This document shows, piece by piece, positions 1,914-55,131 of a DNA stretch of 64,000 bases. The notes under the pieces are model-generated. The model saw only the letters and a program-made list of their open reading frames with translations, was not told the DNA's origin and ran no database searches. Source of the DNA: Rickettsiales bacterium (GTDB taxonomy: Bacteria > Pseudomonadota > Alphaproteobacteria > Rs-D84); NCBI GenBank assembly GCA_031266915.1, contig JAISAB010000002.1:76738-140737 (forward strand), read 5' to 3'. The first letter of the stretch is position 1; the number at the start of each line of letters is the position of its first letter. A program made the translations under genes and the position numbers.

Positions 1914-1966
1914 TTCGCTTCGCCAATTAAAAATACAGTTAACAGATAACAGAGCACAGATAACAA

Positions 1967-2704
1967 ATGGTTTGCGGAACGTTTTTTTTGTCGAAAGTCG
2001 CAAAACAATTATCAATTGTTATCTGTTCATTGTTAATTGTTAATTATTCCAATGCGCAAAGCGCATTGGAATACGACATGGCCGACCCGATGTTTCTGAC
2101 GAAATCCGGCGACATTTGGTCCGATTCCAGCCTGCTGTTCAACAGCGATGTTCTGCGTCTGGCCCAAAAATTGTCGTACGGCGTGGGTGACAAGCTGTCG
2201 ATTGCGGCGGATATAAAATACCAGCAGGATTTTAACGGTCCCGAAGACGGCTTTTCCAATATCGGTGTCGGCGGCGTTTACAGATTATCGGACGTCGGTT
2301 CGAAAATCGTGACCGACGCGTTATTCGGGATAAATTTCGGCGGCGCAAAACGCGTCCGCGAGCCGGATTTCGCCGATACCATTTATCAAGCGGGCGTCCG
2401 GCTGGGGCGCCAGTGGTCCAGACTCACGCTGGCCGGAACAATCAAGACCAGCTGGATTTTTGACGAGAACCGCGGCATGGCATATATCGACGTCATCCCC
2501 GATGTCTACATCCGCCTGACCGACAGCTGGATGACCGGATTCGGGTTTGATATACGCAAATCGACCAATCCGAACTTTGACCGGCAATGGGCGAATTTCA
2601 AATTGGTCCGCCAATACGGCCGCACGCAGTACATGGGCCATGTGGATTATGAATTCGAAAATCGGAACTGGCAGTTCGGCGCAAAGGTCGATATATTGTT
2701 CTAG
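1967..2704 (+). CDS. putative outer-membrane beta-barrel protein (paralog-like of 690..1913)
   Basis: 245-aa ORF with a signal-like N-terminus (...SLLIVNYSNAQSA). It has a similar GxG/YxY-rich composition and ends in ...VDILF. The start codon is uncertain. Confidence 0.45.
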   Translation: MVCGTFFLSKVAKQLSIVICSLLIVNYSNAQSALEYDMADPMFLTKSGDIWSDSSLLFNSDVLRLAQKLSYGVGDKLSIAADIKYQQDFNGPEDGFSNIGVGGVYRLSDVGSKIVTDALFGINFGGAKRVREPDFADTIYQAGVRLGRQWSRLTLAGTIKTSWIFDENRGMAYIDVIPDVYIRLTDSWMTGFGFDIRKSTNPNFDRQWANFKLVRQYGRTQYMGHVDYEFENRNWQFGAKVDILF

Positions 2705-3046: not shown

Positions 3047-3738
3047 TATAATTGCGGCGTTTTTCTTTTTAGCCCGACAGCCAGCACAATAGAATTCCCA
3101 ATACTTTTCATTTTTTTCTTTATTACAACTTTGTTTATACCATTCAAATAATTATTACTATTATAATGTAAATAGCTATTTACTCTATCCAGCAATTTAT
3201 TTGTCTTTGTTAGTGCACGATGTTCGTTATCAATCGGTGCTGGTTTATTCCGCCAAACATCAACCGGTGACAAATCCCCATTGTCCAAACGTTTTTTATA
3301 GGATTCAAGCTCAATTGTATAATCGGTAAGATTGGCGCCTTGTAATTCCGTATCATTCAGTTTGCTTAGGTATTTCAGCCTGTTCTCTATCATAAGAACT
3401 TCCAAAAGTTCAAACCATCGCTGTGTGGGAAACAAATCGTCTTCCATCAATTTTTTCTTTTTGGCATTTTTCTGCCGTTCTATCAAAATACCCCGTTTTT
3501 CTAATTCGGATTTTTTCAAAAGCCCCATTATTTCTATGCCATTTAAAATCGATGGCCAGTAATCTTTTCCAGAAGCCGGAATATTAAAGTCAGAACGTCT
3601 ATTTAGCTTATCGTTGCTTCTTTGGGAAATATGTGTAAAAAGCCGCTTTGCGTCAGTTATATAATCAACAGGTGTTCCCAATAATTCAATCTCGGATTGG
3701 CCAATAATTTCTTTTTTTGTTTTATTAGTTTTTGACAT
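3046..3738 (-). CDS. hypothetical protein on an AT-rich islet (Lys/Asn-rich)
   Basis: The probable start is MSKTNKTKKE..., 48 codons inside the longer ORF 3046..3882. The region is strongly AT-rich compared with neighbouring genes. The gene abuts the MITE terminus at 3045 and lies downstream of rarA on the same strand. Confidence 0.5.
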   Translation of the reverse strand: MSKTNKTKKEIIGQSEIELLGTPVDYITDAKRLFTHISQRSNDKLNRRSDFNIPASGKDYWPSILNGIEIMGLLKKSELEKRGILIERQKNAKKKKLMEDDLFPTQRWFELLEVLMIENRLKYLSKLNDTELQGANLTDYTIELESYKKRLDNGDLSPVDVWRNKPAPIDNEHRALTKTNKLLDRVNSYLHYNSNNYLNGINKVVIKKKMKSIGNSIVLAVGLKRKTPQL

Positions 3739-5665: not shown

Positions 5666-7555
5666 ATGATTAAGAAAACCGTTAGGAAAGCCAGGAATTA
5701 TTTCGACCAATCGAAGACGGTCAAAAAGCTGGGCGCGGGATTTGAAAAAATTCCATCCGGTCTGGGCCGTGCGCGCAGAAAACTGGCGCGCGCGGACGCG
5801 AAAACCTGGTACGGAAAAACGGGAAAATGGACGGGCGCCGGTTTGCTGCTGGCGCTGCAGGCCGCGGCAAAAGTCGTCAAAATTATGGGCGTGGACAATC
5901 TGGTGCTGCGCGCGGTCGAGATTGAGTTCGCGACAATCAAACCCGGGAAAAATAAAAAAGGCAACGACAAGAAGTTCGCCACGTTTATAAAAAAACATCC
6001 GTGGATTCCGGCCTATCTGACAAACTATATGATTATGGCGTCATTTTTGTTCGGCGCCAACGTCGGCGGCATACGCGACGGCGCCGTCGACGGGATAAAA
6101 TCCGGCGTGGAAAGCCTGAAAGACTATTTTTCAAAGGACAAGGAAAGCGGAGAAAAAATAGACATTTCAACCATGAAAATGACCGGCGCCCAGTGGTGCA
6201 AAACGGATTTTGTGAACGCGCTGTGCGTGGCGATTCCGCTGGTGTTCGAAGAATGCTATACGACCGCAAAGCTGACATCTGAACGCGGCGGCGTATATAA
6301 CATCGGATATTGCATGACCCGTATGCCCGCGAATAAAAGCAAACCGTACGGCAAATGGCGCAAGGTCAGAAAAGGGGATACCTGTACCGAGGAACAAGCG
6401 GCCCTGTGGGCGGCCGTTTACAGTCAGAAAAATATTTTCCCGACTATCAGCGAGAAACTGACCGTCGAAGTGTCCTGCGGAATGATTTTGGCGCTGGCGG
6501 ACTTGTCTTATAATGCCGGCGCATTGGGTGTCATGATTGCGCGTTTGAACGACGGCTGGACCGAAGAACGTGTCCTGAACAGGATGTTGGAATACCGATA
6601 TGCGAAAATAAAAAACGAAAAAACAGGCAAAATGGTTCCCATAATTTTGGACGGTCTGATAGTCCGCCGCTGGTGGGATTATGCGGCCGGCCATAATAAA
6701 TTGGATTACGAAAAACTGTTGGACTGCAATCTGACGGCCGTATCGCAAATAGGCAGCGGCAACCTTTATTCGGATAAAGCAAAATACAAACCAATCATAA
6801 CCGATAAAAAAGTCGAACAGGTTTTAACCGCAAGCGTCCCGGGCAAACCAAGCGTCCGCGATATATTCAGCCGAAGCGAAACCGGCAGAAAATACATCGC
6901 GTCGATAGAAAATGCCGATGTCAGCATAGCAAAGACAGCCGAACCGGTTGAGGCAATAGAACAGGATTCGGAAAGCTATCTGGTCAATAATATCGCGTTC
7001 GAGGCGCAGACGGCTTTTGACAAAGGGCACTATAAAATCGCTGCGGACAAATTCAGGAAAATGATTGAACTGGTCCCGGACGCGTATGATTCTTACAATG
7101 ATTTGATATTCACGTTATATAAACTTGGAAATTACGACGAAGGCTTGAAATACGCCAGAATACTGATAGACCTGGGCCACGCCAATGATGTCAGCGAGGA
7201 TAAAATGTTCGGCTCGGCTTATTTTAACGCCGGTCTTTGCCGCGAAGCCAAGGGCGAATTGGAAAAGGCGAGGGCGAATTACGAGACCGCATCGCTTAGA
7301 ATGCCGAACAATATATTCGTAAAAAATGCCTTGGACAGAATTGATAAAAAGATAAAAGAACAAAACGATAAGAAACGTAAAAGCGGCAACAGCGGCAAGA
7401 AAAAAAGCGCTGGGGCGACAACGTCGGCAAAGTCTAAATTCAATCGTGCGTCTTCTAAAATAAAGAACGTGGTCGCAGAGGTCAAACCTGAAAAGGGCAG
7501 CACGTTCGATGCGACGTATTTTTTCATAAACCCCTACGATAATGGCATGGCGTGA
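5666..7555 (+). CDS. membrane-anchored GH24 (phage-type) lysozyme-like domain protein with C-terminal TPR repeats and Lys-rich tail
   Basis: The segment FEECYTTAKLTSERGGVYNIGYCMT...GDTCTEEQAALW...ILALADLSYNAGALG...GLIVRRWWDYAAG aligns motif by motif with T4/lambda lysozyme (catalytic E..D/T-EG-Y.IG.GH, TEEQA, the helix-loop FNvG, GL..RR..E). There is a hydrophobic N-proximal segment (WTGAGLLLALQAAAKVVKIMG). The C-terminal region contains TPR-like repeats (YNDLIFTLYKLGNYDEGLKYA... ELEKARANYETA). Confidence 0.65.
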   Translation: MIKKTVRKARNYFDQSKTVKKLGAGFEKIPSGLGRARRKLARADAKTWYGKTGKWTGAGLLLALQAAAKVVKIMGVDNLVLRAVEIEFATIKPGKNKKGNDKKFATFIKKHPWIPAYLTNYMIMASFLFGANVGGIRDGAVDGIKSGVESLKDYFSKDKESGEKIDISTMKMTGAQWCKTDFVNALCVAIPLVFEECYTTAKLTSERGGVYNIGYCMTRMPANKSKPYGKWRKVRKGDTCTEEQAALWAAVYSQKNIFPTISEKLTVEVSCGMILALADLSYNAGALGVMIARLNDGWTEERVLNRMLEYRYAKIKNEKTGKMVPIILDGLIVRRWWDYAAGHNKLDYEKLLDCNLTAVSQIGSGNLYSDKAKYKPIITDKKVEQVLTASVPGKPSVRDIFSRSETGRKYIASIENADVSIAKTAEPVEAIEQDSESYLVNNIAFEAQTAFDKGHYKIAADKFRKMIELVPDAYDSYNDLIFTLYKLGNYDEGLKYARILIDLGHANDVSEDKMFGSAYFNAGLCREAKGELEKARANYETASLRMPNNIFVKNALDRIDKKIKEQNDKKRKSGNSGKKKSAGATTSAKSKFNRASSKIKNVVAEVKPEKGSTFDATYFFINPYDNGMA

Positions 7556-7995
7556 TGAAAGTCGTAGCAAATTATAATGACAACCGCTGGCGGAAATACA
7601 AAATCGACTTCGCGCGCATCGCGCGCATGGCGGCCAGTTCTATGCGCAAAGATTCCGAGGTTTCGATTATTCTGACCAACGACGTCGAGGTTCGCGCCCT
7701 GAACAAGCGATACCGCGGGATTAACAAGGCGACAAATGTGCTGTCTTTTGAAACGGGCGACGACCAATTGTTGGGCGATATATTTATCTCGTTCGACACG
7801 GTTTCGCGTGAGGCCATGGGCGACGGCAAGACATTCCAAGACCACGCCGCACATATGGTCGTGCACGGCATGTTGCATTTGCTGGGGTATGACCATATGA
7901 ATGATTCTGATGCGGACACGATGGAAAATCTGGAGATTAAAATATTAAGGAAACTGGGCGTGAGTAATCCGTATGAACAAATAAAAGGAACGAGG
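7552..7995 (+). CDS. ybeY: endoribonuclease YbeY domain; no in-frame stop, so it reads through into lnt as a single 704-codon ORF 7552..9666
   Basis: The metal-binding motif HMVVHGMLHLLGYDH and the surrounding YbeY consensus are present. The expected C-terminus (~148 aa) coincides with the start of a palindromic repeat element (7986-8114), and no stop codon precedes lnt. Confidence 0.85.
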
Positions 7996-8114
7996 AACGG
8001 GAACAAGGAACCCGCCTTCGCCAAGGCTACGGCGGGCAGGCGGGAACGTGGAATGGGGCATAATACAAAGTTTCCAGTTCCTTGTTCCTGTTCCTTATTT
8101 CTGTTCCTTATTCC
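7986..8114. repeat. palindromic repeat element (RPE-like), copy 1, at the ybeY/lnt junction, in frame
   Basis: The sequence ggaacgggaacaaggaacccgccttcgccaaggctacggcgggcaggcgggaac ... gtttccagttccttgttcctgttcc has inverted arms and an inner hairpin cccgcc..ggcggg. It is about 85 percent identical to the copy at 8213-8316. Confidence 0.6.
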
Positions 8115-9666
8115 TATTTTATGCGGCGCAGTCGCTGCGCTGGGCTATGCGCCGTTTAATTTATGGTGGGCGACGTTACTCGGAATCGGCGGCATGTATT
8201 ATCTGGTGGTAAAAGGAACAGGAACAAGGAACCCGCCTTCGCCGAGGCTACGGCGGGCAGGCAGGAACTCGGCACAGTGCAAAGTTTCCCATTCCTTGTT
8301 CCCGTTCCTGTTCCCCTACCTGTTCGGCGCGGCATATGCCGTCGGGATGTTCTGGTGGGTCGTCAATTCTATATTCGTCGTCCCGGAATTGGCCGCGCAA
8401 TTCGCGATATTCGCTGCGCCGGCAATTCTGGGTATCGGGCTATTCGGCGGGCTGATATTCGAGATTCCATTCGTGGTAATTCGCTGTATGCGGCCAAATC
8501 ATGCGTATAGGGCGATTTTGTTCGCGTTGTTATGGACAGTTATCCTATGGCTGCGCGAATGGCTGTTGACAGGATTTCCATGGAATCCGGTCGCGAATAT
8601 TTCCATGCCGTTTCCAATCCTTTCCAATTCCATGTCGCTGTGGGGGGCGATGGGGCTGACGTTTGTCATCATCGGCCTGGTTGCGTCCATCGTAGAAATT
8701 ATCCGCAACGTAAAATCCAAGGGCGCATACGTTCAGTTGATTATTTTTTCGGTATTAATGTCTGTCGGAATATTTTTCGGTTATAAAAATATCCAGTCAT
8801 CTAAATTCGAAACTGATGAAAAAACACCAGTTATCCGAATAGTTCAGCCCGCGAGTTCTGCCGAAGACAAGGCCACCCATTCGCGCGAGCAGGCCATCGC
8901 CAACGCCGAGAAAAATATTCAGAATCTGATTCGTCTGGCAACTGAAAATCCGATTAAGCCGGACTTGTACGTTTTTCCGGAAACGGCGTATCCGTACATG
9001 GTTGTCGACGGCTATTTTCCTTTGGCGCAGGTATTGAAGACGCCGACGATTATGGGCGCGATGTCGTACGACGACGGCCGTTTTTACAATTCTTTGCTGA
9101 TTGCAAATCCAGCCGGCCGGATTGAAAAGATATACAGCAAGTCGCATCTGGTGCCGTTCGGCGAATACCGCCCGCTGGGCGATATTATTCCAACGCCCGG
9201 CCAGCTGACGCCTGGCGCCGGTCCTGAGATTCTGCAAGTCGCCGCTGGGGACAAGGCCGCGATTGATTTTGCGCCGGCGATTTGTTACGAGATTATTTTT
9301 TCTGATTCATTGGTGCCGGGCGGCGCGCCGGTCGAACCGGACGTCATCGTCAACATTACGAACGATACATGGTTCGGCAAGACGCCGGGCAGCTATCAGC
9401 ACTTGGACATGGTCCGCCGCTATGCGATTGAATCGGGACTGCCGGTCGTTCGTGCGAACTATTCGGGAATCAGCGCGTTCATCGATTCCGACGGCCGGGT
9501 TGCATCACGGTTGCCAATCGGCGTCGCGGGATATTTGGACGGTCGGATCGGCGGCGGCCATATGACGATTTATCGCCGGATAGGGCGCGATTTGTGGATG
9601 GTTATAATTTTGCTGTTTTCAGCAACCGCCGCAGGATGTATATCCTTATTTCAGAAGAGAGATTAG
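8053..9666 (+). CDS. lnt: apolipoprotein N-acyltransferase
   Basis: The N-terminal TM helices are present. The motif WLLTGFPWNP is present. The C-terminal CN-hydrolase domain carries the catalytic triad context (FPETAYP...; HLVPFGEYRP; ICYEIIF). The candidate start ATG at 8053 lies inside the repeat element and is in frame with ybeY. The true start and any fusion are unresolved. Confidence 0.85.
   Translation: MGHNTKFPVPCSCSLFLFLIPILCGAVAALGYAPFNLWWATLLGIGGMYYLVVKGTGTRNPPSPRLRRAGRNSAQCKVSHSLFPFLFPYLFGAAYAVGMFWWVVNSIFVVPELAAQFAIFAAPAILGIGLFGGLIFEIPFVVIRCMRPNHAYRAILFALLWTVILWLREWLLTGFPWNPVANISMPFPILSNSMSLWGAMGLTFVIIGLVASIVEIIRNVKSKGAYVQLIIFSVLMSVGIFFGYKNIQSSKFETDEKTPVIRIVQPASSAEDKATHSREQAIANAEKNIQNLIRLATENPIKPDLYVFPETAYPYMVVDGYFPLAQVLKTPTIMGAMSYDDGRFYNSLLIANPAGRIEKIYSKSHLVPFGEYRPLGDIIPTPGQLTPGAGPEILQVAAGDKAAIDFAPAICYEIIFSDSLVPGGAPVEPDVIVNITNDTWFGKTPGSYQHLDMVRRYAIESGLPVVRANYSGISAFIDSDGRVASRLPIGVAGYLDGRIGGGHMTIYRRIGRDLWMVIILLFSATAAGCISLFQKRD
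8213..8316. repeat. palindromic repeat element (RPE-like), copy 2, inserted in frame within lnt between TM1 and TM2
   Basis: The sequence is aaaaggaacaggaacaaggaacccgccttcgccgaggctacggcgggcaggcaggaac...gtttcccattccttgttcccgttcctgttcc. It encodes an extra ~30 aa (TRNPPSPRLRRAGRNSAQCKVSHS) that is absent from E. coli Lnt at this position. Confidence 0.6.
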
Positions 9667-9817
9667 AACCATCGCCGCGAACAGCGTCGATGGAATCGAT
9701 AACGGCCGCGACGGACATCCCGTCAGCGTCAGCCATTTTCCGTAACGTGTCCGCGAATTCATTTTCCAGCGAAATGCTGGTCTGGTGTCCCTGCAAAGAT
9801 ACCGATATTTTCTTCAT
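9602..9817 (-). CDS. ribbon-helix-helix domain protein (conserved alphaproteobacterial RHH family)
   Basis: The 71-aa protein MKKISVSLQGHQTSISLENEFADTLRKMADADGMSVAAVIDSIDAVRGDGSNLSSEIRIYIL matches the conserved RHH protein family (MKKRSVSISGHRTS.SLE..F...L..IA...G.S...L..EID..R....NLSSAIR.FVL). Its 3' end overlaps the end of lnt (convergent). Confidence 0.6.
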   Translation of the reverse strand: MKKISVSLQGHQTSISLENEFADTLRKMADADGMSVAAVIDSIDAVRGDGSNLSSEIRIYILRRLLKTAKL

Positions 9818-10252: not shown

Positions 10253-10364
10253 ATTAGTAACTAGTGTATAGTGTTTAGTGCTTAGTTAATAGTGCATAGT
10301 GATTTAATTATCAGGTTATAACACTATAAACTATACACTAATCACTATGCACTACTAACTTGTT

Positions 10365-22381: not shown

Positions 22382-24175
22382 ATGTCAGACAACAAATATC
22401 CAATTGAACAGATTCGCCACAGCTTGGCGCATGTCTTGGCGGCAGCGGTTCAAAAATTACATCCGGATGTGAAATTCGGGGGCGGGCCCGCCATCGAGAA
22501 CGGCTTTTACTATGACTTTGACACGGAATACCGTTTTTCCGAATCGGATTTCGCGGCCATCGAAAAGGAAATGAAATCGCTGATTAAATCGGATGGCAGG
22601 TTCGTCCGCCGCGAGGTATCGTTGCCCGAAGCCAAAGAGATATTCAAAGACCAGCCATATAAAATGGAATGGCTGGGCGATATGGATGATGGAAAATGGA
22701 TAAGGGATGATGTAGATTCCATATCATCCATCATCCATCATCCATCATCCATTATATCCGTTTACACATTCCGCGACTTCACGGACCTATGCCGCGGGCC
22801 GCATGTGGAATCTTCCGCCGCGCTGCCGCGCGATTCGTTCAAGATTCGCAGCGTTGCCGGCGCGTACTGGAAGGGCGATTCGAAAAACAAAATGCTGCAG
22901 CGCATCTATGTCGACGCGTTCGCGACCGCGGTTGAGTTGGCGGAATTTCTAAAGATGCAGGAAGAGGCCGCCCAGCGCGACAACCGAAAACTGGGGCGCG
23001 AGATGGACCTGTTCCATTTCGAGCCCGACTATGCCCCGGGCGCCGTGTTCTGGCACGACAAGGGGTTCAGGATTTATCGCCGCCTGATAGACTACGTCCG
23101 CATGCGCCAGGAACAGGCGGGGTACCTGGAAATTTCGACTCCGTCAGTAATGGACCGCAGTTTGTGGGAAAAATCCGGCCACTGGGCCAAATACGGCGAG
23201 CATAATTATTCCGGCAAGACCCAGGATGGCAAGACCTTTTGCGTAAAACCGATGTCCTGTCCGGGCGGCATGCTGGTGTTCGGCCACGGCCAGGTGTCGT
23301 ACAAGGACCTGCCGATGTACGTGGCCGAATTCGGCAAGGTCAACAGGTACGAGGCGGCGGGCGGCCTGTCGGGCCTGATGCGCGTGCGCGAATTCACCCA
23401 GGACGACGCCCATATCTTCTGCACTGAAAATCAGCTGGAGGAAGAGGTCGTCAAAGTCCTGCGCTTTATCAAGGATATTTATGCCAAGTTCGGATTCGAC
23501 AAAATTTCGATGAAACTGGCGACGCGCAAGGAATCTGAATTCCGCATCGGCGACGACGCGATTTGGGACAAGGCCGAGGGCGCGCTGAAATCCGCGCTGG
23601 ATAAAAACGGAATCGAATATGAAATCGCAGAGGGCGACGCGGCGTTCTATGGCCCGAAGATTGATAACTATCTGAAAGATTCCATGGGCCGCGTATGGCA
23701 ATGCGGAACGGTTCAACTGGATATGAATCTGCCCCAGCGCTTTGATTTGTCCTATATCGGCGAAGACGGCGAAAAGCACCGCCCGATTATGCTGCACCGC
23801 GCGATGCTGGGGTCAATCGAACGCTTTATGGGAATCCTGCTGGAATCGACGGGGGGCAATCTGCCACTGTGGCTGTCGCCGGAACCGGTCGTCGTCACGC
23901 CGATTTCCGAAAAGTATCGGGAATACGCCGCGGAAGTCGTTGATATGCTGAAACACGCGGGCGTCCATGCCGCCGGCGATATGCGCGATGAAAAGGTCAA
24001 CTATAAAATCCGCGAACTGTCCCTGGCCAAGACGCCGGTTATCGCCGTTGTCGGCGAAAAGGAACGGGACGACAAGACCGTTACTCTGCGTCATTTGGGC
24101 AGCGAGAAACAGGAAACCGTTTCCCTGGACGCGTTTATAAATCAAATGGCGCAAGCCGTCCAAATGCCGGAGTAA
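22382..24175 (+). CDS. thrS: threonyl-tRNA synthetase (lacks N-terminal TGS domain; contains an in-frame palindromic insertion at ~22679-22757)
   Basis: The second N-terminal domain (HSLAHVLA), class II motifs (FRDFTDLCRGPH, GLMRVREFTQDDAHIF, GPKID, QCGTVQLD) and a C-terminal anticodon-binding domain are present. The protein begins at the position equivalent to E. coli residue ~70. Confidence 0.93.
   Translation: MSDNKYPIEQIRHSLAHVLAAAVQKLHPDVKFGGGPAIENGFYYDFDTEYRFSESDFAAIEKEMKSLIKSDGRFVRREVSLPEAKEIFKDQPYKMEWLGDMDDGKWIRDDVDSISSIIHHPSSIISVYTFRDFTDLCRGPHVESSAALPRDSFKIRSVAGAYWKGDSKNKMLQRIYVDAFATAVELAEFLKMQEEAAQRDNRKLGREMDLFHFEPDYAPGAVFWHDKGFRIYRRLIDYVRMRQEQAGYLEISTPSVMDRSLWEKSGHWAKYGEHNYSGKTQDGKTFCVKPMSCPGGMLVFGHGQVSYKDLPMYVAEFGKVNRYEAAGGLSGLMRVREFTQDDAHIFCTENQLEEEVVKVLRFIKDIYAKFGFDKISMKLATRKESEFRIGDDAIWDKAEGALKSALDKNGIEYEIAEGDAAFYGPKIDNYLKDSMGRVWQCGTVQLDMNLPQRFDLSYIGEDGEKHRPIMLHRAMLGSIERFMGILLESTGGNLPLWLSPEPVVVTPISEKYREYAAEVVDMLKHAGVHAAGDMRDEKVNYKIRELSLAKTPVIAVVGEKERDDKTVTLRHLGSEKQETVSLDAFINQMAQAVQMPE
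22679..22757. repeat. palindromic in-frame insertion inside thrS
   Basis: The arms gatatggatgatggaaaatggataagggatgatg...ccatatcatccatcatccatcatccatcatcc are complementary. It encodes ~16 extra residues (DDGKWIRDDVDSISSIIHHPSS) relative to E. coli ThrRS between the ...SIL and DMCRGPH equivalents. Confidence 0.55.
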
Positions 24176-24341: not shown

Positions 24342-24491
24342 ATGAAGATGAAAAAATTAATCGCGGTTATGGGATTATGTTCCCTGGTATTGGCGCTGGG
24401 CGCATGCTCGAGAACATGCGAGACCGAGCCGATTGTCGAGCAGAATCACAAACTGATTGTGCCGAAGAATTTCGGCAGCCAGCCGAAATAA
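24342..24491 (+). CDS. small putative lipoprotein (49 aa)
   Basis: MKMKKLIAVMGLCSLVLALGACSR has a lipobox LALGAC. The ORF is below the ORF-track size cutoff and is preceded by the RBS aaaagg. Confidence 0.4.
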   Translation: MKMKKLIAVMGLCSLVLALGACSRTCETEPIVEQNHKLIVPKNFGSQPK

Positions 24492-24543
24492 CCATTAGTA
24501 GTTAGTAACTAGTGGCTAGTTACTAACTACTAGCTACTAATGG
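24488..24543. repeat. tagt-rich perfect-like palindrome (hairpin)
   Basis: aaccattagtagttagtaactagtggctagttactaactactagctactaatggtt; this family is also at 10262-10360, 32262-32395 and 38190-38240. Confidence 0.5.
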
Positions 24544-24574
24544 TTTTTTGTGATACAATGGGCCCGAAGAACAA

Positions 24575-32158: not shown

Positions 32159-32185
32159 AATTAATTTTCCACCCGGAATTGCATT

Positions 32186-32242
32186 GCACGTAAAAAATGC
32201 CCCTCATGTACGCCTTGTACACTACGGGGCATTTTTTACGTG
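32186..32242 (+). terminator. long hairpin repeat downstream of ftsI (same family as 21128-21182)
   Basis: cacgtaaaaaatgcccctcatgtacgccttgtacactacggggcattttttacgtg, followed by gcagtcaacccaact. Confidence 0.5.
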
Positions 32243-32261
32243 CAGTCAACCCAACTGATAA

Positions 32262-32395
32262 AATTAAAATAATCATTAGTCATTAGTTATTAGTGCTTAG
32301 TGATTAGTTGATAGTGCATAGTTAACTAGTTCACTAATAACTAAGCACTATGCACTATACACTAATGGTTATTGACTATGGACTAATGATTATTT
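32262..32395. repeat. tagt-rich imperfect palindrome (~130 bp)
   Basis: ttagtgcttagtgattagttgatagtgcatag...cactaataactaagcactatgcactatacactaatgg has complementary arms. Confidence 0.45.
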
Positions 32396-40022: not shown

Positions 40023-40098
40023 GGGTGCGTAGCTCAGTTGGTAGAGCAACTGACTCTTAATCAGTGGGTCTGGGGTTCGAATCCCCACGCGCCCACCA
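40023..40098 (+). tRNA. tRNA-Lys (anticodon CTT)
   Basis: The cloverleaf is acceptor gggtgcg/cgcgccc, D arm gctc-agttggta-gagc, anticodon arm actga-ctCTTaa-tcagt, T arm tgggg-ttcgaat-cccca, and an encoded CCA. Confidence 0.9.
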
Positions 40099-40109
40099 AT
40101 TTGAAACCG

Positions 40110-40215
40110 TTGGATTTCCGGCGGTTTTTCATTTAATTTGATTCAGTTATATTCACGAAAATGTTTGCTGTCAGGCGTTTTTTGTCCCGTTTTTGCCCCC
40201 GGGTGGTGTGAAAAT
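40110..40215. repeat. ~100-bp direct repeat, left copy (flanks AT-rich islet next to tRNA-Lys)
   Basis: ggcggtttttcatttaatttgattcagttatattcacgaaaatgtttgctgtcaggcgttttttgtcccgtttttgcccc...gtgtgaaaatggcgaatttc is about 85 percent identical to 41040-41145. Confidence 0.55.
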
Positions 40216-53529: not shown

Positions 53530-55131
53530 CTATCCTAATTTCTTTTTCAAAATTTCATTCACGGTTGCGGGGTTGGCGCTGCCGCCGGTGGCCTTCATGA
53601 TCTGGCCGACAAAGAATCCCATCAGGCCGACCTTGCCGCTGCGATACTGTTCCAGCGGTCCCTGGTTGGCGGCGATAACGTCGTCGACGGCTTTTTCAAT
53701 CGCGCTAGTATCCGTGATTTGCTTCATGCCGAATTTGTCCGCGATTGCACGTGGTGAACCTGTTTCGCCGTCCAGCATTTTGATAAAGATGTCTTTGGCC
53801 TGTTTGCCGTTGACGTCGGCCGCGGCAATCATATCGACCAATTCGGCCAAGTCGTCGGGCGTGATTATTCGCGGTGGCAAATCCCCTTCGCTGGCGAAGG
53901 GGTGCCCGCAGGGCGGGGTAGTGGTTGCCGAATCATTTTCAACTACCCCGTCCGGCTTCGCCGGCCACCCCTTCGCCAGCGAAGGGGAATAATTCTCGGG
54001 GTGCGCGAACAGTTCGCTTATCAGCCAATTCGCAATCGGCTTGGCGCGCACCGGTTTGTCGCCGACGGCCGATTCGAACCATTTGGAAATATCGACGCTT
54101 TCGGTCAGACGCGCCGCGTCGTATTCGGATAATCCCAGTTCGTCGATATAGCGCGTGCGCCGCGCGGACGGCAATTCCGGCAGGGTCGCGCGAATGCGCT
54201 CAATCGTTTCGTCTTCAATCACCAGCGGCAATAAATCCGGGTCCGGAAAGTAACGGTAATCCAGCGCGTCTTCTTTGCTGCGCGCAACCGATGTTGTGCC
54301 GGAATCTTGATTATAATGCATTGTATCCTGGGACACCGTGCCGCCATTTTCATAGATTTCGATTTGACGGCGGGCCTCGTATTCAATGGCTGTCTTGATA
54401 AACTTGAAAGACACCATGTTTTTTGTCTCGGTGCGGGTTCTGAATTCAGTGCTGCCGGCGGGGCGGACCGATACGTTGACGTCGGCGCGCATGCTGCCTT
54501 CCTCCATATTCGCCTTGGACACATTCAGGGCGCGCGCGATTTCGCGAATCTGGCGCAGATAGCGCTCAGCTTCATCGGGACTGGTTATGTAGGAATTATT
54601 TTCCGGATTTTTCACATCCAGAAACGTCACGATTTCCAACAGCATGACCCCGCTGCGATTCAAGTCCACAAAAGTTTTTGTCGGATGCGCATCGTGCTTG
54701 TTTTTTGCGGCGTCTTGCTCCATGTGCGCGCGTTCGATATATATTTTTTTCGGTTCGCCGTCATCCGACATGATTTCAAGCCATCCGCGGCCGACGACGG
54801 GCGGCTCTTCGGCGGGCTGTGAAATCTGGTATCCCTGGGGCAGGTCGGGATAGAAATATTGCTTGCGCGCGAATTTGCTGACGCGCGAAATTTCAGCGTT
54901 TATCCCCAGGCCGAAGCGAATCGTCTGTTCGACGCAGAATTCATTCAGCACCGGCAGCATGCCCGGCATGGCGGCGTCGACCATCGACACCTGGGTGTTG
55001 GGCGGCACGGTCGGGTTATAGTCCGCGGACGCGCCGCTGAACAATTTTGATTCAGATAAAACCTCTATATGGGTTTCCAGTCCGATGACCAGTTCCCAAT
55101 CGCCCGTTTTACCCTTGATAGTGTATGTCAT
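53530..55131 (-). CDS. gatB: aspartyl/glutamyl-tRNA(Asn/Gln) amidotransferase subunit B (with in-frame palindromic insertion)
   Basis: The N-terminus MTYTIKGKTGDWELVIGLETHIEV and the GatB core and tail domains are present. There is an extra ~35-aa segment encoded by a palindromic element (53880-53993). Confidence 0.92.
   Translation of the reverse strand: MTYTIKGKTGDWELVIGLETHIEVLSESKLFSGASADYNPTVPPNTQVSMVDAAMPGMLPVLNEFCVEQTIRFGLGINAEISRVSKFARKQYFYPDLPQGYQISQPAEEPPVVGRGWLEIMSDDGEPKKIYIERAHMEQDAAKNKHDAHPTKTFVDLNRSGVMLLEIVTFLDVKNPENNSYITSPDEAERYLRQIREIARALNVSKANMEEGSMRADVNVSVRPAGSTEFRTRTETKNMVSFKFIKTAIEYEARRQIEIYENGGTVSQDTMHYNQDSGTTSVARSKEDALDYRYFPDPDLLPLVIEDETIERIRATLPELPSARRTRYIDELGLSEYDAARLTESVDISKWFESAVGDKPVRAKPIANWLISELFAHPENYSPSLAKGWPAKPDGVVENDSATTTPPCGHPFASEGDLPPRIITPDDLAELVDMIAAADVNGKQAKDIFIKMLDGETGSPRAIADKFGMKQITDTSAIEKAVDDVIAANQGPLEQYRSGKVGLMGFFVGQIMKATGGSANPATVNEILKKKLG
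53880..53993. repeat. palindromic element inserted in frame in gatB
   Basis: The outer arms are aaatccccttcgctggcgaaggggtg ... caccccttcgccagcgaaggggaata, and the inner arms are ggggtagtggttg...caactaccccg. It encodes SLAKGWPAKPDGVVENDSATTTPPCGHPFASEGDLPP, which is absent from other GatB proteins. Confidence 0.55.

Follow-up and report, generated by a model that had tools for sequence, protein, structure and literature searches.

The ybeY and lnt genes in the 64-kb stretch of DNA analysed here (the window) very probably form a genuine and ancient gene fusion, in which two in-frame hairpin repeats, named E1 and E2, are probably later and non-essential passengers and not the cause of the fusion (Table 1). 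Both YbeY and Lnt are encoded in full by one stop-free ORF on the forward strand (7552..9666, 704 aa), which confirms the single continuous reading frame noted in the preliminary description. GTG 7552 is the first codon of the mechanical ORF; the database protein MDR1337571.1 (703 aa) starts at ATG 7555, which has one A in common with the TGA stop codon of the upstream gene. The NCBIfam equivalog profiles for YbeY (TIGR00043, 128.3 bits versus a cutoff of 45) and Lnt (TIGR00546, 233 versus 132.9 bits) were both passed, as was the Pfam profile for YbeY (PF02130, 118 versus 25 bits), and the Pfam domains span aa 20-135 (YbeY), 192-375 (LNT_N) and 455-655 (CN_hydrolase). The YbeY part aligns with E. 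coli YbeY (1xm5) up to residue 151 of 155, including the intact zinc motif HGMLHLLGYDH (H-x3-H-x5-H), of which the zinc histidines H105, H109 and H115 are invariant in an alignment of 82 sequences. The catalytic residues of Lnt are also kept (Glu in FPETAYP, Lys in YSKSHLVPFGEY and Cys in AICYE), with the triad E477, K530 and C578 invariant in the alignments and the motifs aligning to P. aeruginosa Lnt (5n6m). An AlphaFold2 model (mean pLDDT 84) shows eight membrane helices, the nitrilase domain being placed after helix 7 and before helix 8; confidence is low in three stretches only, namely aa 145-175, about 225-245 and 535-541. The Lnt part therefore has the equivalog profile match, the membrane and nitrilase-type domains and the Glu-Lys-Cys triad of the family, and at the level of sequence the uninterrupted ORF and an architecture common to the orthologs are those of a single polypeptide.

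Table 1. Features of the fused ybeY-lnt gene and its palindromic elements (positions in the window).
Feature	Position	Strand	Description or basis
Fused ybeY-lnt CDS	7555..9666	+	ORF, profile matches, database protein
YbeY endoribonuclease domain, ending at conserved NPY	7555..7974	+	Profiles, alignment
Element E1, palindromic, arms built of GGAACN(N) repeats	7981..8122		142 nt, predicted hairpin
E1 core side hairpin, CCCGCCTTCGCCAAGGCTACGGCGGGCAGG(C)	8011..8041	+	Fits cross-phylum consensus YCCGCCTTCGCCAAGGCTACGGCGGRCARG
In-frame ATG within E1	8053..8055	+	Candidate internal start; not conserved in relatives
Segment between E1 and E2	8123..8212	+	Most of H1, periplasmic GYAPFNLWW turn, H2
Element E2, second copy	8213..8316		104 nt, predicted hairpin
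E2 core side hairpin, CCCGCCTTCGCCGAGGCTACGGCGGGCAGG(C)	8232..8262	+	Sequence search, fold
Lnt helices H3-H7, remainder of membrane part	8317..8832	+	Pfam, AlphaFold2 model
Periplasmic nitrilase-type (CN_hydrolase) domain	8833..9543	+	Pfam, alignments, AlphaFold2 model
C-terminal membrane helix H8	9586..9651	+	AlphaFold2 model

All of the best 120 homologs (119 plus the window's own protein) are full-length fusions of YbeY, LNT_N and CN_hydrolase (BLASTP identity 50–66%, query coverage 96-100%, length 639-797 aa), and the linker is continuous in every aligned fusion sequence. When 1.84 billion representative sequences were searched by phmmer with the YbeY part, 24,819 matches were obtained, among which proteins of >600 aa or fusion fragments occurred only within the top ~20, with the others being about 150 aa in length. 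That the best homologs are all fused, and that only the closest YbeY matches are fusion-like, indicates that the fusion is an old trait of a single clade of MAGs labelled Rickettsiales or Alphaproteobacteria. Most of the fusion orthologs have a palindrome at neither site and display a conserved ancestral loop motif there instead, as exemplified by the element-free orthologs L002 and L158, which are both fused and in both of which the ancestral loop is conserved. As orthologs without the element are fused as well, the element did not create the fusion, which by this comparison of sequences is older than the palindromic element and independent of it. The YbeY–Lnt fusion considered in the preliminary description was hence upheld, but not the role of the element as its bridge, and the expectation that orthologs lacking the element would have separate genes was contradicted by the compared loci, which are fused and free of internal stops in all eight cases. 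More distant members of the family share a conserved Cys-rich linker.

In E. coli, ybeY and lnt are located in one operon, ybeZYX-lnt (10.1101/2023.03.20.533420). The fusion resembles other 'Rosetta stone' fusions of operon neighbours in that these two partners are combined in one protein, but differs from the E. coli arrangement in the absence of ybeX/corC between ybeY and lnt, and in being found in one uncultured clade only. Lnt has eight helices with both the N- and the C-terminus in the cytoplasm (PMC5500888), and since its N-terminus is cytoplasmic, joining YbeY to it fits this topology. No description of a YbeY–Lnt fusion was found in the searchable literature, and the NCBI name for these fusion proteins is plain 'apolipoprotein N-acyltransferase'.

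The palindrome reported at the ybeY–lnt junction corresponds to E1, for which the predicted hairpin has a folding energy of -64.2 kcal/mol (z = -6.2), with none of 200 shuffled sequences being as stable. Its arms are 40 nt in length (7972-8011 and 8077-8116); those of E2 are 24 nt (8208-8231 and 8292-8315), with a folding energy of -54.5 kcal/mol (z = -4.8). The two elements are direct repeats of 80-87% identity, in identical orientation and in a different reading frame, and each is a composite of a GGAACN(N)-repeat palindrome and a ~30-nt core hairpin nested in the 5′ arm. The repeat units in the arms are 6–7 nt (TRF periods 6, 7 and 13), and both elements have terminal inverted repeats. No flanking direct repeat was seen by eye around either element, and the replacement of ancestral sequence has made their boundaries indistinct. 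Neither the 30-nt core nor the arm motif was found anywhere else in the 64 kb (chance expectation 0), and a search of Rfam gave no meaningful match.

The E1 site is the linker between YbeY and H1, where the peptide encoded by the element is at first basic and modelled with low confidence (aa ~145-175) and then hydrophobic, forming the beginning of H1; the E2 site is the cytoplasmic H2–H3 loop, where the element encodes a basic loop together with the hydrophobic beginning of H3. The second copy was correctly recognised as a homologous in-frame palindrome in the preliminary description, but was placed there between TM1 and TM2, and its proposed addition of about 30 residues has to be revised, as E2 encodes about 35 aa but, compared with relatives, the H2-H3 loop has gained only about 17 aa; for the linker at E1 the gain is about 30 aa. 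The gain in length at E2 being smaller than the peptide encoded, ancestral residues were replaced as well as added, and such replacement also fits a local template-switch origin. In the model the helices begin at residues 182 and 244, within the 3′ arms. The purine fraction is 0.84-0.85 in the 5′ arms versus 0.13-0.17 in the 3′ arms, and the polar parts of the element peptides contain 7-8 Lys and Arg and 0-2 Asp and Glu residues, with the peptides from the 3′ arms being uncharged. Only the used forward frame is open in E1, and all three are open in E2. The cytoplasmic linker and loop may represent two permissive positions that were later occupied in frame by a hairpin repeat, with the purine-rich 5′ arm and core giving a basic disordered segment suited to the cytoplasmic side, and the pyrimidine-rich 3′ arm giving an uncharged hydrophobic stretch with which an in-to-out helix would now begin, in place of the ancestral residues. 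The elements would then be tolerated because of the nature of the peptide encoded, and since either strand reads purine-rich and then pyrimidine-rich, the palindrome would fit such sites in both orientations.

Palindromes are also present at both the E1 and E2 sites in the related loci L001, L155, L156 and L157, so that the same two positions are occupied in at least five lineages, with differing arm sequences. Such same-site occupation in several lineages could mean function or targeting, beyond mere tolerance. In L001 both sites have the GGAACN(N)-repeat palindrome but lack the core, and as E1 and E2 are more like each other than like the L001 copies, their similarity suggests duplication within the locus or gene conversion, the two copies being about 220 bp apart. 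Neighbour-joining bootstraps weakly favour grouping P0005 with P0006, which is element-free (71%), rather than with the window (27%), so that the insertions in the window and in L001 may or may not have a common origin. In L155 the unit is present in both orientations (109 nt, 94% complementary) and has a non-palindromic centre, which argues for a discrete element. The core hairpin sequence occurs verbatim in >150 loci from many phyla, so that it cannot be a product of local chance, and its closing pair covaries (C-G versus T-A), being paired in 89% compared with 65±2% in shuffles. The reverse strand of the core reads CCGCC-GTAG-CCTTGGCGAAGG-CGG, with the GTAG within the loop of the outer stem and not 5′ of the whole hairpin. 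No copy of the core was present in 72,556 plasmids or in 50,697 phages, and the whole element was found at a second locus in none of 32 metagenome matches to GGAAC plus core; with no second locus in these matches or in the 64 kb, dispersal as a family is not supported.

In the window, three housekeeping genes contain in-frame palindromes, four in all (ybeY-lnt twice, thrS and gatB), those in thrS and gatB being insertions relative to solved homologs; several further palindromes are intergenic. The repeat unit is peculiar to each palindrome, and no dispersed palindrome family with a conserved sequence was found in the 64 kb. The suggested likeness to Rickettsia palindromic elements (RPEs, reviewed in PMC10969869) therefore held for the in-frame insertions, but not for a dispersed family, and the genome proved not to be GC-rich, with a GC content of the window of about 50% (range 0.40-0.58). 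As with RPEs, palindromic units of ~100-150 bp are located in frame in several housekeeping genes of an alphaproteobacterium, where they lengthen the host protein by a peptide and do not destroy it. Unlike RPEs, the arms consist of tandem 6-7-nt repeats and enclose a cross-phylum 30-nt core, some of the ancestral residues are replaced, only two adjacent copies are present in the 64 kb in place of many dispersed ones with a family consensus, and the host is a MAG of ~50% GC and not Rickettsia. We consider the likeness good in kind, judged by form and placement rather than by consensus sequence.

The elements also resemble MITEs and REP/BIME sequences, which are likewise short non-coding hairpin-forming repeats, and REPs in particular by the core of about 30 nt and, in part, by the GTAG before a small hairpin on its reverse strand. 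REP sequences are typically lineage-specific and extragenic, whereas the core here is intragenic and identical across phyla; the intragenic position also distinguishes the copies from MITEs, no target-site duplication was visible at their indistinct edges, and the absence of the core from plasmids and phages sets it apart from both classes. Heptameric tandem repeats have been described in Calothrix/Nostoc, Xanthomonas (GGGAATC) and Geobacter (GGACCGG), with some inverted arrays in Xanthomonas able to form stem-loops, and those of Geobacter located both inside and between genes (PMC4692102, PMC2700814). Outside E1 and E2, TRF detected many arrays of period 7 in the window, some as inverted arrays capable of forming stem-loops, but here arrays form complete palindromes that are translated in frame in essential genes, and the arms of E1 and E2 mix 6- and 7-nt units and have an added core hairpin.

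E1 and E2 are probably hairpin modules of the MITE, REP or RPE kind that spread by copy-and-paste or were duplicated locally. It is conceivable, though rather doubtful, that no mobile element was involved and that the palindromes arose in place, with slippage producing the 6-7-nt arrays, template switching their inversion, and gene conversion the copy at the other site. This would account for the private repeat unit of every palindrome in the window, for the paralogous copies being neighbours (160-230 bp apart) and for the ancestral residues being replaced and not displaced, and polymerase slippage has already been invoked for the over-representation of heptameric repeats in bacteria (PMC4692102); it does not readily explain an identical core in so many phyla, nor the L155 unit with its non-palindromic centre in both orientations. 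A functional role of the hairpins is unlikely, be it as RNA or DNA structures tuning translation, in ribosome pausing for membrane targeting, in mRNA stability, or as required linker and loop peptides, with selection maintaining both sites. Most fusion orthologs do without a palindrome at either site, the encoded segments are of low confidence in the AlphaFold2 model, comparable palindromes occur in unrelated genes and intergenic DNA, and promoter-like and terminator-like signals were no more frequent than expected by chance, although the repeated use of the same two positions, the similarity of the copies within a genome and the covariation in the core are as expected under such selection.

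We regard it as very improbable that two proteins are made, with E1 lying between cistrons as a site of processing or re-initiation (for instance after RNase III cleavage), Lnt initiated at ATG 8053 and YbeY ended by other means. The ATG is in frame, and RNase III could plausibly cleave a long stable hairpin such as E1, but no start codon in the linker is conserved among the relatives (L001 and L002 have only TTG codons, inside the hydrophobic segment), and a ybeY stop codon is present in 0/8 loci. The internal Lnt start put forward in the preliminary description also lies within the folded region of E1, preceded by only weak GGA/GGGAA purine stretches (read by eye) and no clear Shine-Dalgarno sequence, and the Cys-rich linker of the distant members argues for one polypeptide. 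The probability of an artefact, in which a missing stop or chimeric join generated the fused ORF or duplicated the palindrome, is close to negligible: the sequence derives from one metagenome-assembled contig and palindromes are difficult to assemble, but the same fused architecture is present in >100 independent assemblies (JGI, ENA, NCBI, Logan), both elements are in frame and directly abut conserved motifs, and comparable palindromes are located at the same sites in related loci.

We propose that the fusion originated when the gene between ybeY and lnt was lost in this clade and both reading frames merged, giving a single polypeptide in which the eight-helix Lnt would carry the YbeY RNase at its N-terminus via a short linker, with both the RNase and this N-terminus in the cytoplasm. 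YbeY and Lnt would thereby genuinely be made as one protein throughout this uncultured alphaproteobacterial lineage.

The ybeY and lnt sequences of the window lie in one continuous ORF of 704 codons, running from a GTG at 7552 to 9666 on the plus strand, in which YbeY, LNT_N and CN_hydrolase domains were all found (table), bearing out the single reading frame of the preliminary description; the YbeY and Lnt equivalogs of NCBIfam both scored above their cutoffs. An identical database protein (MDR1337571.1, 'MAG: apolipoprotein N-acyltransferase [Rickettsiales bacterium]', encoded on a 151-kb contig) starts at the ATG at 7555, the A of which doubles as the A of the TGA stop codon of the upstream gene (TGATG overlap). 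E. coli YbeY (1xm5, 155 aa) could be aligned up to residue 151, which corresponds to the NPY of the query, and YbeY is thus complete at the start of the linker. The upstream gene (5666–7555, plus strand, 629 aa) encodes a phage-lysozyme-like domain and TPR repeats, and the gene order ROS/MucR, lysozyme-like/TPR gene, ybeY-lnt is also kept in three loci of relatives (L001, L002 and L158). A convergent 71-aa ORF on the minus strand (9602–9817) covers the last 65 nt of lnt (9602–9666, plus strand); this ORF corresponds to a ribbon-helix-helix (RHH_4) gene in relatives, and the layout is the same in L002. The mean GC content of the window is ~50%, and hence the earlier label 'GC-rich' is inaccurate.

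The best 120 matches in a search of 5.8 billion proteins (50–66% identity, 96–100% coverage, 639–797 aa) all contained YbeY, LNT_N and CN_hydrolase (120/120), and originated from JGI, ENA, NCBI and Logan assemblies, every one being a MAG with the label Rickettsiales or Alphaproteobacteria. The linker was unbroken in all aligned fusion homologs, the alignments showed no variation in the histidines with which YbeY binds zinc or in the Lnt motifs with Glu, Lys and Cys, and none of the eight loci read had an internal stop codon. The possibility that the fused ORF is an assembly artefact is contradicted by these >100 independent fused orthologs, while initiation of Lnt at the internal ATG at 8053, previously offered as an alternative, is disfavoured since no start codon is conserved in the linker of the eight loci compared, and this ATG itself lies inside the hairpin of the first palindromic element. 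The closest relatives without any palindrome (L002, encoding P0002, and L158, encoding P0006) are both fused, so that the genuine fusion proposed earlier stands, but does not depend on the element; the suggested comparison of orthologous loci did yield cases without the element, but no separate genes there. Judged from these sequences, the YbeY-Lnt fusion is real and conserved, and is independent of the palindromic element. When the YbeY part alone was compared with 1.84 billion cluster representatives, matches that were >600 aa or resembled truncated fusions were found only within the top ~20 of 24,819, with all others being ~150 aa, which marks the fusion as derived and as belonging to a single lineage. 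The E. coli genes for the two proteins are members of the ybeZYX-lnt operon (10.1101/2023.03.20.533420), and YbeY-Lnt is a fusion of operon neighbours. No description of a fusion of YbeY and apolipoprotein N-acyltransferase was found in a full-text search of the searchable literature.

The linker is ~46 aa long in a larger, more distant subclade (P0022–P0120), and contains a conserved motif rich in Cys (C-x4-5-CCPG), after which comes an amphipathic stretch; metal binding or membrane anchoring may take place here. Two homologs (P0016 and P0078) have a common ~31-aa insertion in the N-terminal part of the YbeY domain (…KTSEIMRKSDRILFPWMHNVRLSGAFGEI…; alignment columns 35–66). In the locus encoding P0078 (L159), no palindrome was detectable at this insertion, nor was a relic palindrome detectable in the linker.

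The fused gene of the window contains two homologous in-frame palindromic elements, E1 (7981–8122) in the linker between YbeY and the first membrane helix of Lnt (H1), and E2 (8213–8316). Their predicted folds have free energies of −64.2 kcal/mol (z = −6.2) and −54.5 kcal/mol (z = −4.8), respectively, matched by no shuffle. Nested in each element is a core of ~30 nt (8011–8041 and 8232–8262), which forms a side hairpin within the 5′ arm in the predicted fold of E1, and no further copies of the core or arm motif were found in the rest of the 64 kb (chance expectation 0). Rfam searches returned only two tRNAs over the whole window at gathering thresholds, and only meaningless sub-threshold hairpin matches over 7900–8400 (E ≤ 10), and a scan of 7300–8600 gave no promoters or terminators above chance.

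Domains and palindromic features in the window and in the related locus L157
Feature	Position	Strand	Remark
YbeY domain	aa 20–135	+	Pfam
LNT_N domain	aa 192–375	+	Pfam
CN_hydrolase domain	aa 455–655	+	Pfam
E1 arms	7972–8011 / 8077–8116		40 nt
E2 arms	8208–8231 / 8292–8315		24 nt
Intergenic palindrome	1935–2045		period-7 arms, own heptamer
Intergenic palindrome	10253–10360		period-7 arms, own heptamer; occupies entire gap between two minus-strand ORFs
Intergenic palindrome	24486–24549		period-7 arms, own heptamer
Intergenic palindrome	32267–32395		period-7 arms, own heptamer; after terminator-like hairpin 32185–32244
In-frame ATGGATG/ATCATCC palindrome, threonyl-tRNA synthetase	22682–22752 in ORF 22382..24175	+	aa 101–124
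In-frame GC-rich double hairpin, GatB	53882–53988 in ORF 53530..55131	-	aa ~382–417; TCCCCTTCGCTGGCGAAGGGG … CCCCTTCGCCAGCGAAGGGGA
L157 palindrome	1992–2090
L157 palindrome	2258–2347
L157 palindrome	2454–2543
L157 palindrome	3479–3613

Purines make up 84–85% of the 5′ arms of E1 and E2 and 13–17% of the 3′ arms. The polar segments of the elements contain 7–8 Lys+Arg and 0–2 Asp+Glu residues, and the peptides encoded by the 3′ arms (…CSCSLFLFLIP and …SLFPFLFPYLF) carry no charge and make up the initial turns of helices H1 and H3. Relative to homologs, the linker is ~30 aa longer and the H2–H3 loop ~17 aa longer, with the elements representing 47 and 35 codons, respectively, and the window protein, when aligned with relatives, lacks the conserved ancestral motif …N-x-FWKSLLQIMPF-GAAY. 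This shortfall in length, together with the missing motif, indicates that the elements partly replaced ancestral residues.

Lnt has eight membrane helices with both termini in the cytoplasm, a periplasmic nitrilase domain between H7 and H8, and Thr48 at the cytoplasmic end of H2 (PMC5500888); YbeY fused to its N-terminus therefore remains cytoplasmic. An AlphaFold2 model based on 82 sequences (mean pLDDT 84, pTM 0.73) contained helices at residues 182–196, 205–224, 244–275, 278–303, 317–338, 361–385 and 390–416, followed by the nitrilase domain and a helix at 679–700, and E2 (aa ~222–255) was located between H2 and H3. Helix parity and alignment to the FNRRPLQS loop of E. coli place the E2 loop on the cytoplasmic side, in the H2–H3 loop and not between TM1 and TM2 as initially assigned. 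Model confidence was <50 only at aa 145–175, 237–243 and 535–541, of which the first two stretches fall within the polar segments of the two elements, and ten-residue blocks over aa 221–250 had a mean confidence of 50–60. A purine-then-pyrimidine palindrome has the same pattern on both strands, and the encoded peptide would always run from a basic loop into a hydrophobic stretch, which would suit cytoplasmic positions just upstream of in-to-out helices. A basic loop on the cytoplasmic side accords with the positive-inside rule.

Palindromes were present at both sites, the YbeY-H1 linker and the H2–H3 loop, in four related loci: L001 (P0005), L155 (P0079), L156 (P0055) and L157 (P0029). Alignment with E1 and E2 showed that the L001 copies consist simply of GGAACCA repeats arranged as a palindrome, with AAGCT at the apex; they have their arms in common with the window units, the latter having extra central sequence. 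The two L155 copies are mutually inverted and in frame (2079–2187 and 2311–2419, 109 nt, 94% complementary); they flank a 123-nt segment coding for H1–H2, which formally is an invertible-segment geometry. In L157, the units at the two sites are unlike (CAAAGAG and GGCATAA). At least four in-frame palindromes of differing kinds were found in its fusion gene (797 aa); one has near-perfect 43-nt arms (…GTCATTGCGAGGAGCAGAGCGACGCGGCAATC…), and another, with GGGGACT-type heptamer arms, is situated farther downstream in this gene and, going by coordinates only, appears to lie in the nitrilase-domain part. Neighbour-joining bootstraps grouped the window with P0005 and P0006 at 84%, and within this group supported P0005 with P0006 at 71% versus the window with P0005 at 27%, values compatible with either common descent or repeated insertion of the window and L001 elements.

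Copies within one genome were more alike than copies of different genomes, which suggests local duplication or gene conversion. A purely local origin would account for the uniqueness of each palindrome and for the replaced ancestral residues, but leaves the imported core and the two orientations in L155 unaccounted for. Occurrence in both orientations of a unit whose centre is not palindromic speaks for a discrete element that can be copied. The hairpins may possibly have a functional role, as could be read from their recurrence at the same sites, but most orthologs lack them. We read E1 and E2 as in-frame passengers of the kind represented by Rickettsia palindromic elements (RPEs), with an unusual composite structure.

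The consensus of the core extends to YCCGCCTTCGCCAAGGCTACGGCGGRCARG, and this sequence was present verbatim in >150 loci from many bacterial phyla in genome and metagenome scans (L003–L154). An exact scan for CCTTCGCCNAGGCTACGGCGG using one genome per species gave at least 120 stretches, with about one match estimated by chance for 20 specified bases, and the matches listed included Acidobacteriota, Verrucomicrobiota, Bacteroidota, Planctomycetota, Patescibacteria, Alphaproteobacteria, Nitrospirales and Desulfobacterales, with Cerasicoccus arenae as an isolate. The stricter pattern GGAAC+core was found in 32 metagenome loci, none of which (0/32) had window-type arms or was the window's own contig, and none of the inspected core loci among the matches listed came from the organism of the window. 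The pair closing the 6-bp stem covaries among the matches listed (C-G in 65, T-A in 55), and is paired in 89% versus 65 ± 2% in shuffles, with no pairing seen beyond it; alternatively, the C-G/T-A pattern could stem from descent in two sub-lineages, without selection.

The sequence flanking the core varies from locus to locus. Exact flanking inverted repeats of at least 9 nt are not general (6% of cores versus 1% in shuffles) and there was no signal of 7-nt periodicity around the cores, making the association in single loci a minority pattern. Cores were rarer than random positions in open frames of at least 150 codons (67% versus 90%), were tandemly multiplied in some loci (L030, L054 and L132), and were in frame in N-terminal ORF regions of L077, L127, L140 and L144 (…ARRSLGEGG…); the core is able to sit inside genes as well as inside other palindromes. 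There was no full match in 72,556 plasmids and 50,697 phages using BLAST, none in Rfam, and nothing relevant in a full-text search of the searchable literature for the core sequence. The nearest analogy is a REP-like mobile hairpin, although the core does not fit the definition of REP sequences, being intragenic here and identical across many phyla.

Period-7 tandem arrays are plentiful in the window (TRF), and several form palindromes, each with its own unit. The in-frame palindrome of thrS is located just ahead of the tRNA_SAD domain and is extra compared with E. coli ThrRS (1qf6), while the gatB hairpin lies between GatB_N and the GatB/YqeY domain, a region of 46 residues versus 13 in Aquifex GatB (3h0l_B). 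With these insertions the window agrees in kind with the RPE phenomenon invoked beforehand, its in-frame palindromes in housekeeping genes being similar in kind to RPEs (PMC10969869). Heptameric repeats have been reported as over-represented in other bacteria, where inverted arrangements and copies inside genes have also been described (PMC4692102, PMC2700814). Two inverted-repeat pairs with non-repetitive arms (41191–41228/41367–41404, 38 nt, 84% complementary; 42983–43012/43064–43093, 30 nt, 93% complementary) are located near the tRNA gene at 40023–40095, and the 11-nt motif TTTTTGCCCCG occurs twice, at 40179 and 41096.

As the inserts show, selfish hairpins are carried in frame outside the AT-rich Rickettsia as well, and a simple rule of tolerance is suggested, in which purine-then-pyrimidine palindromes are accommodated immediately before in-to-out membrane helices. 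The core hairpin, as a cross-phylum repeat, merits a separate study, and naming the fusion proteins 'apolipoprotein N-acyltransferase' alone, as at present, conceals their YbeY half. Two readings would each be new if true, and we consider it rather doubtful that either or both hold, namely that the core is an undescribed cross-phylum module and that the fusion reflects real functional coupling. The YCCGCCTTCGCCAAGGCTACGGCGGRCARG hairpin may be an undescribed module, either spreading across phyla or held by some universal factor. YbeY is a universally conserved RNase with a mode of action that is still debated, and we know of no reason why ybeY and lnt share one operon in E. coli. The clade-wide fusion may reflect that YbeY is functionally coupled to the inner membrane or to lipoprotein maturation, a reading beside which stands the conserved Cys-x-CCPG linker motif of the larger subclade, and such coupling, if true, would account for the conservation of ybeZYX and lnt as neighbours. 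The clade-conserved fusion provides a concrete construct for testing this coupling, and indicates that YbeY can work when anchored next to Lnt on the cytoplasmic side of the inner membrane.
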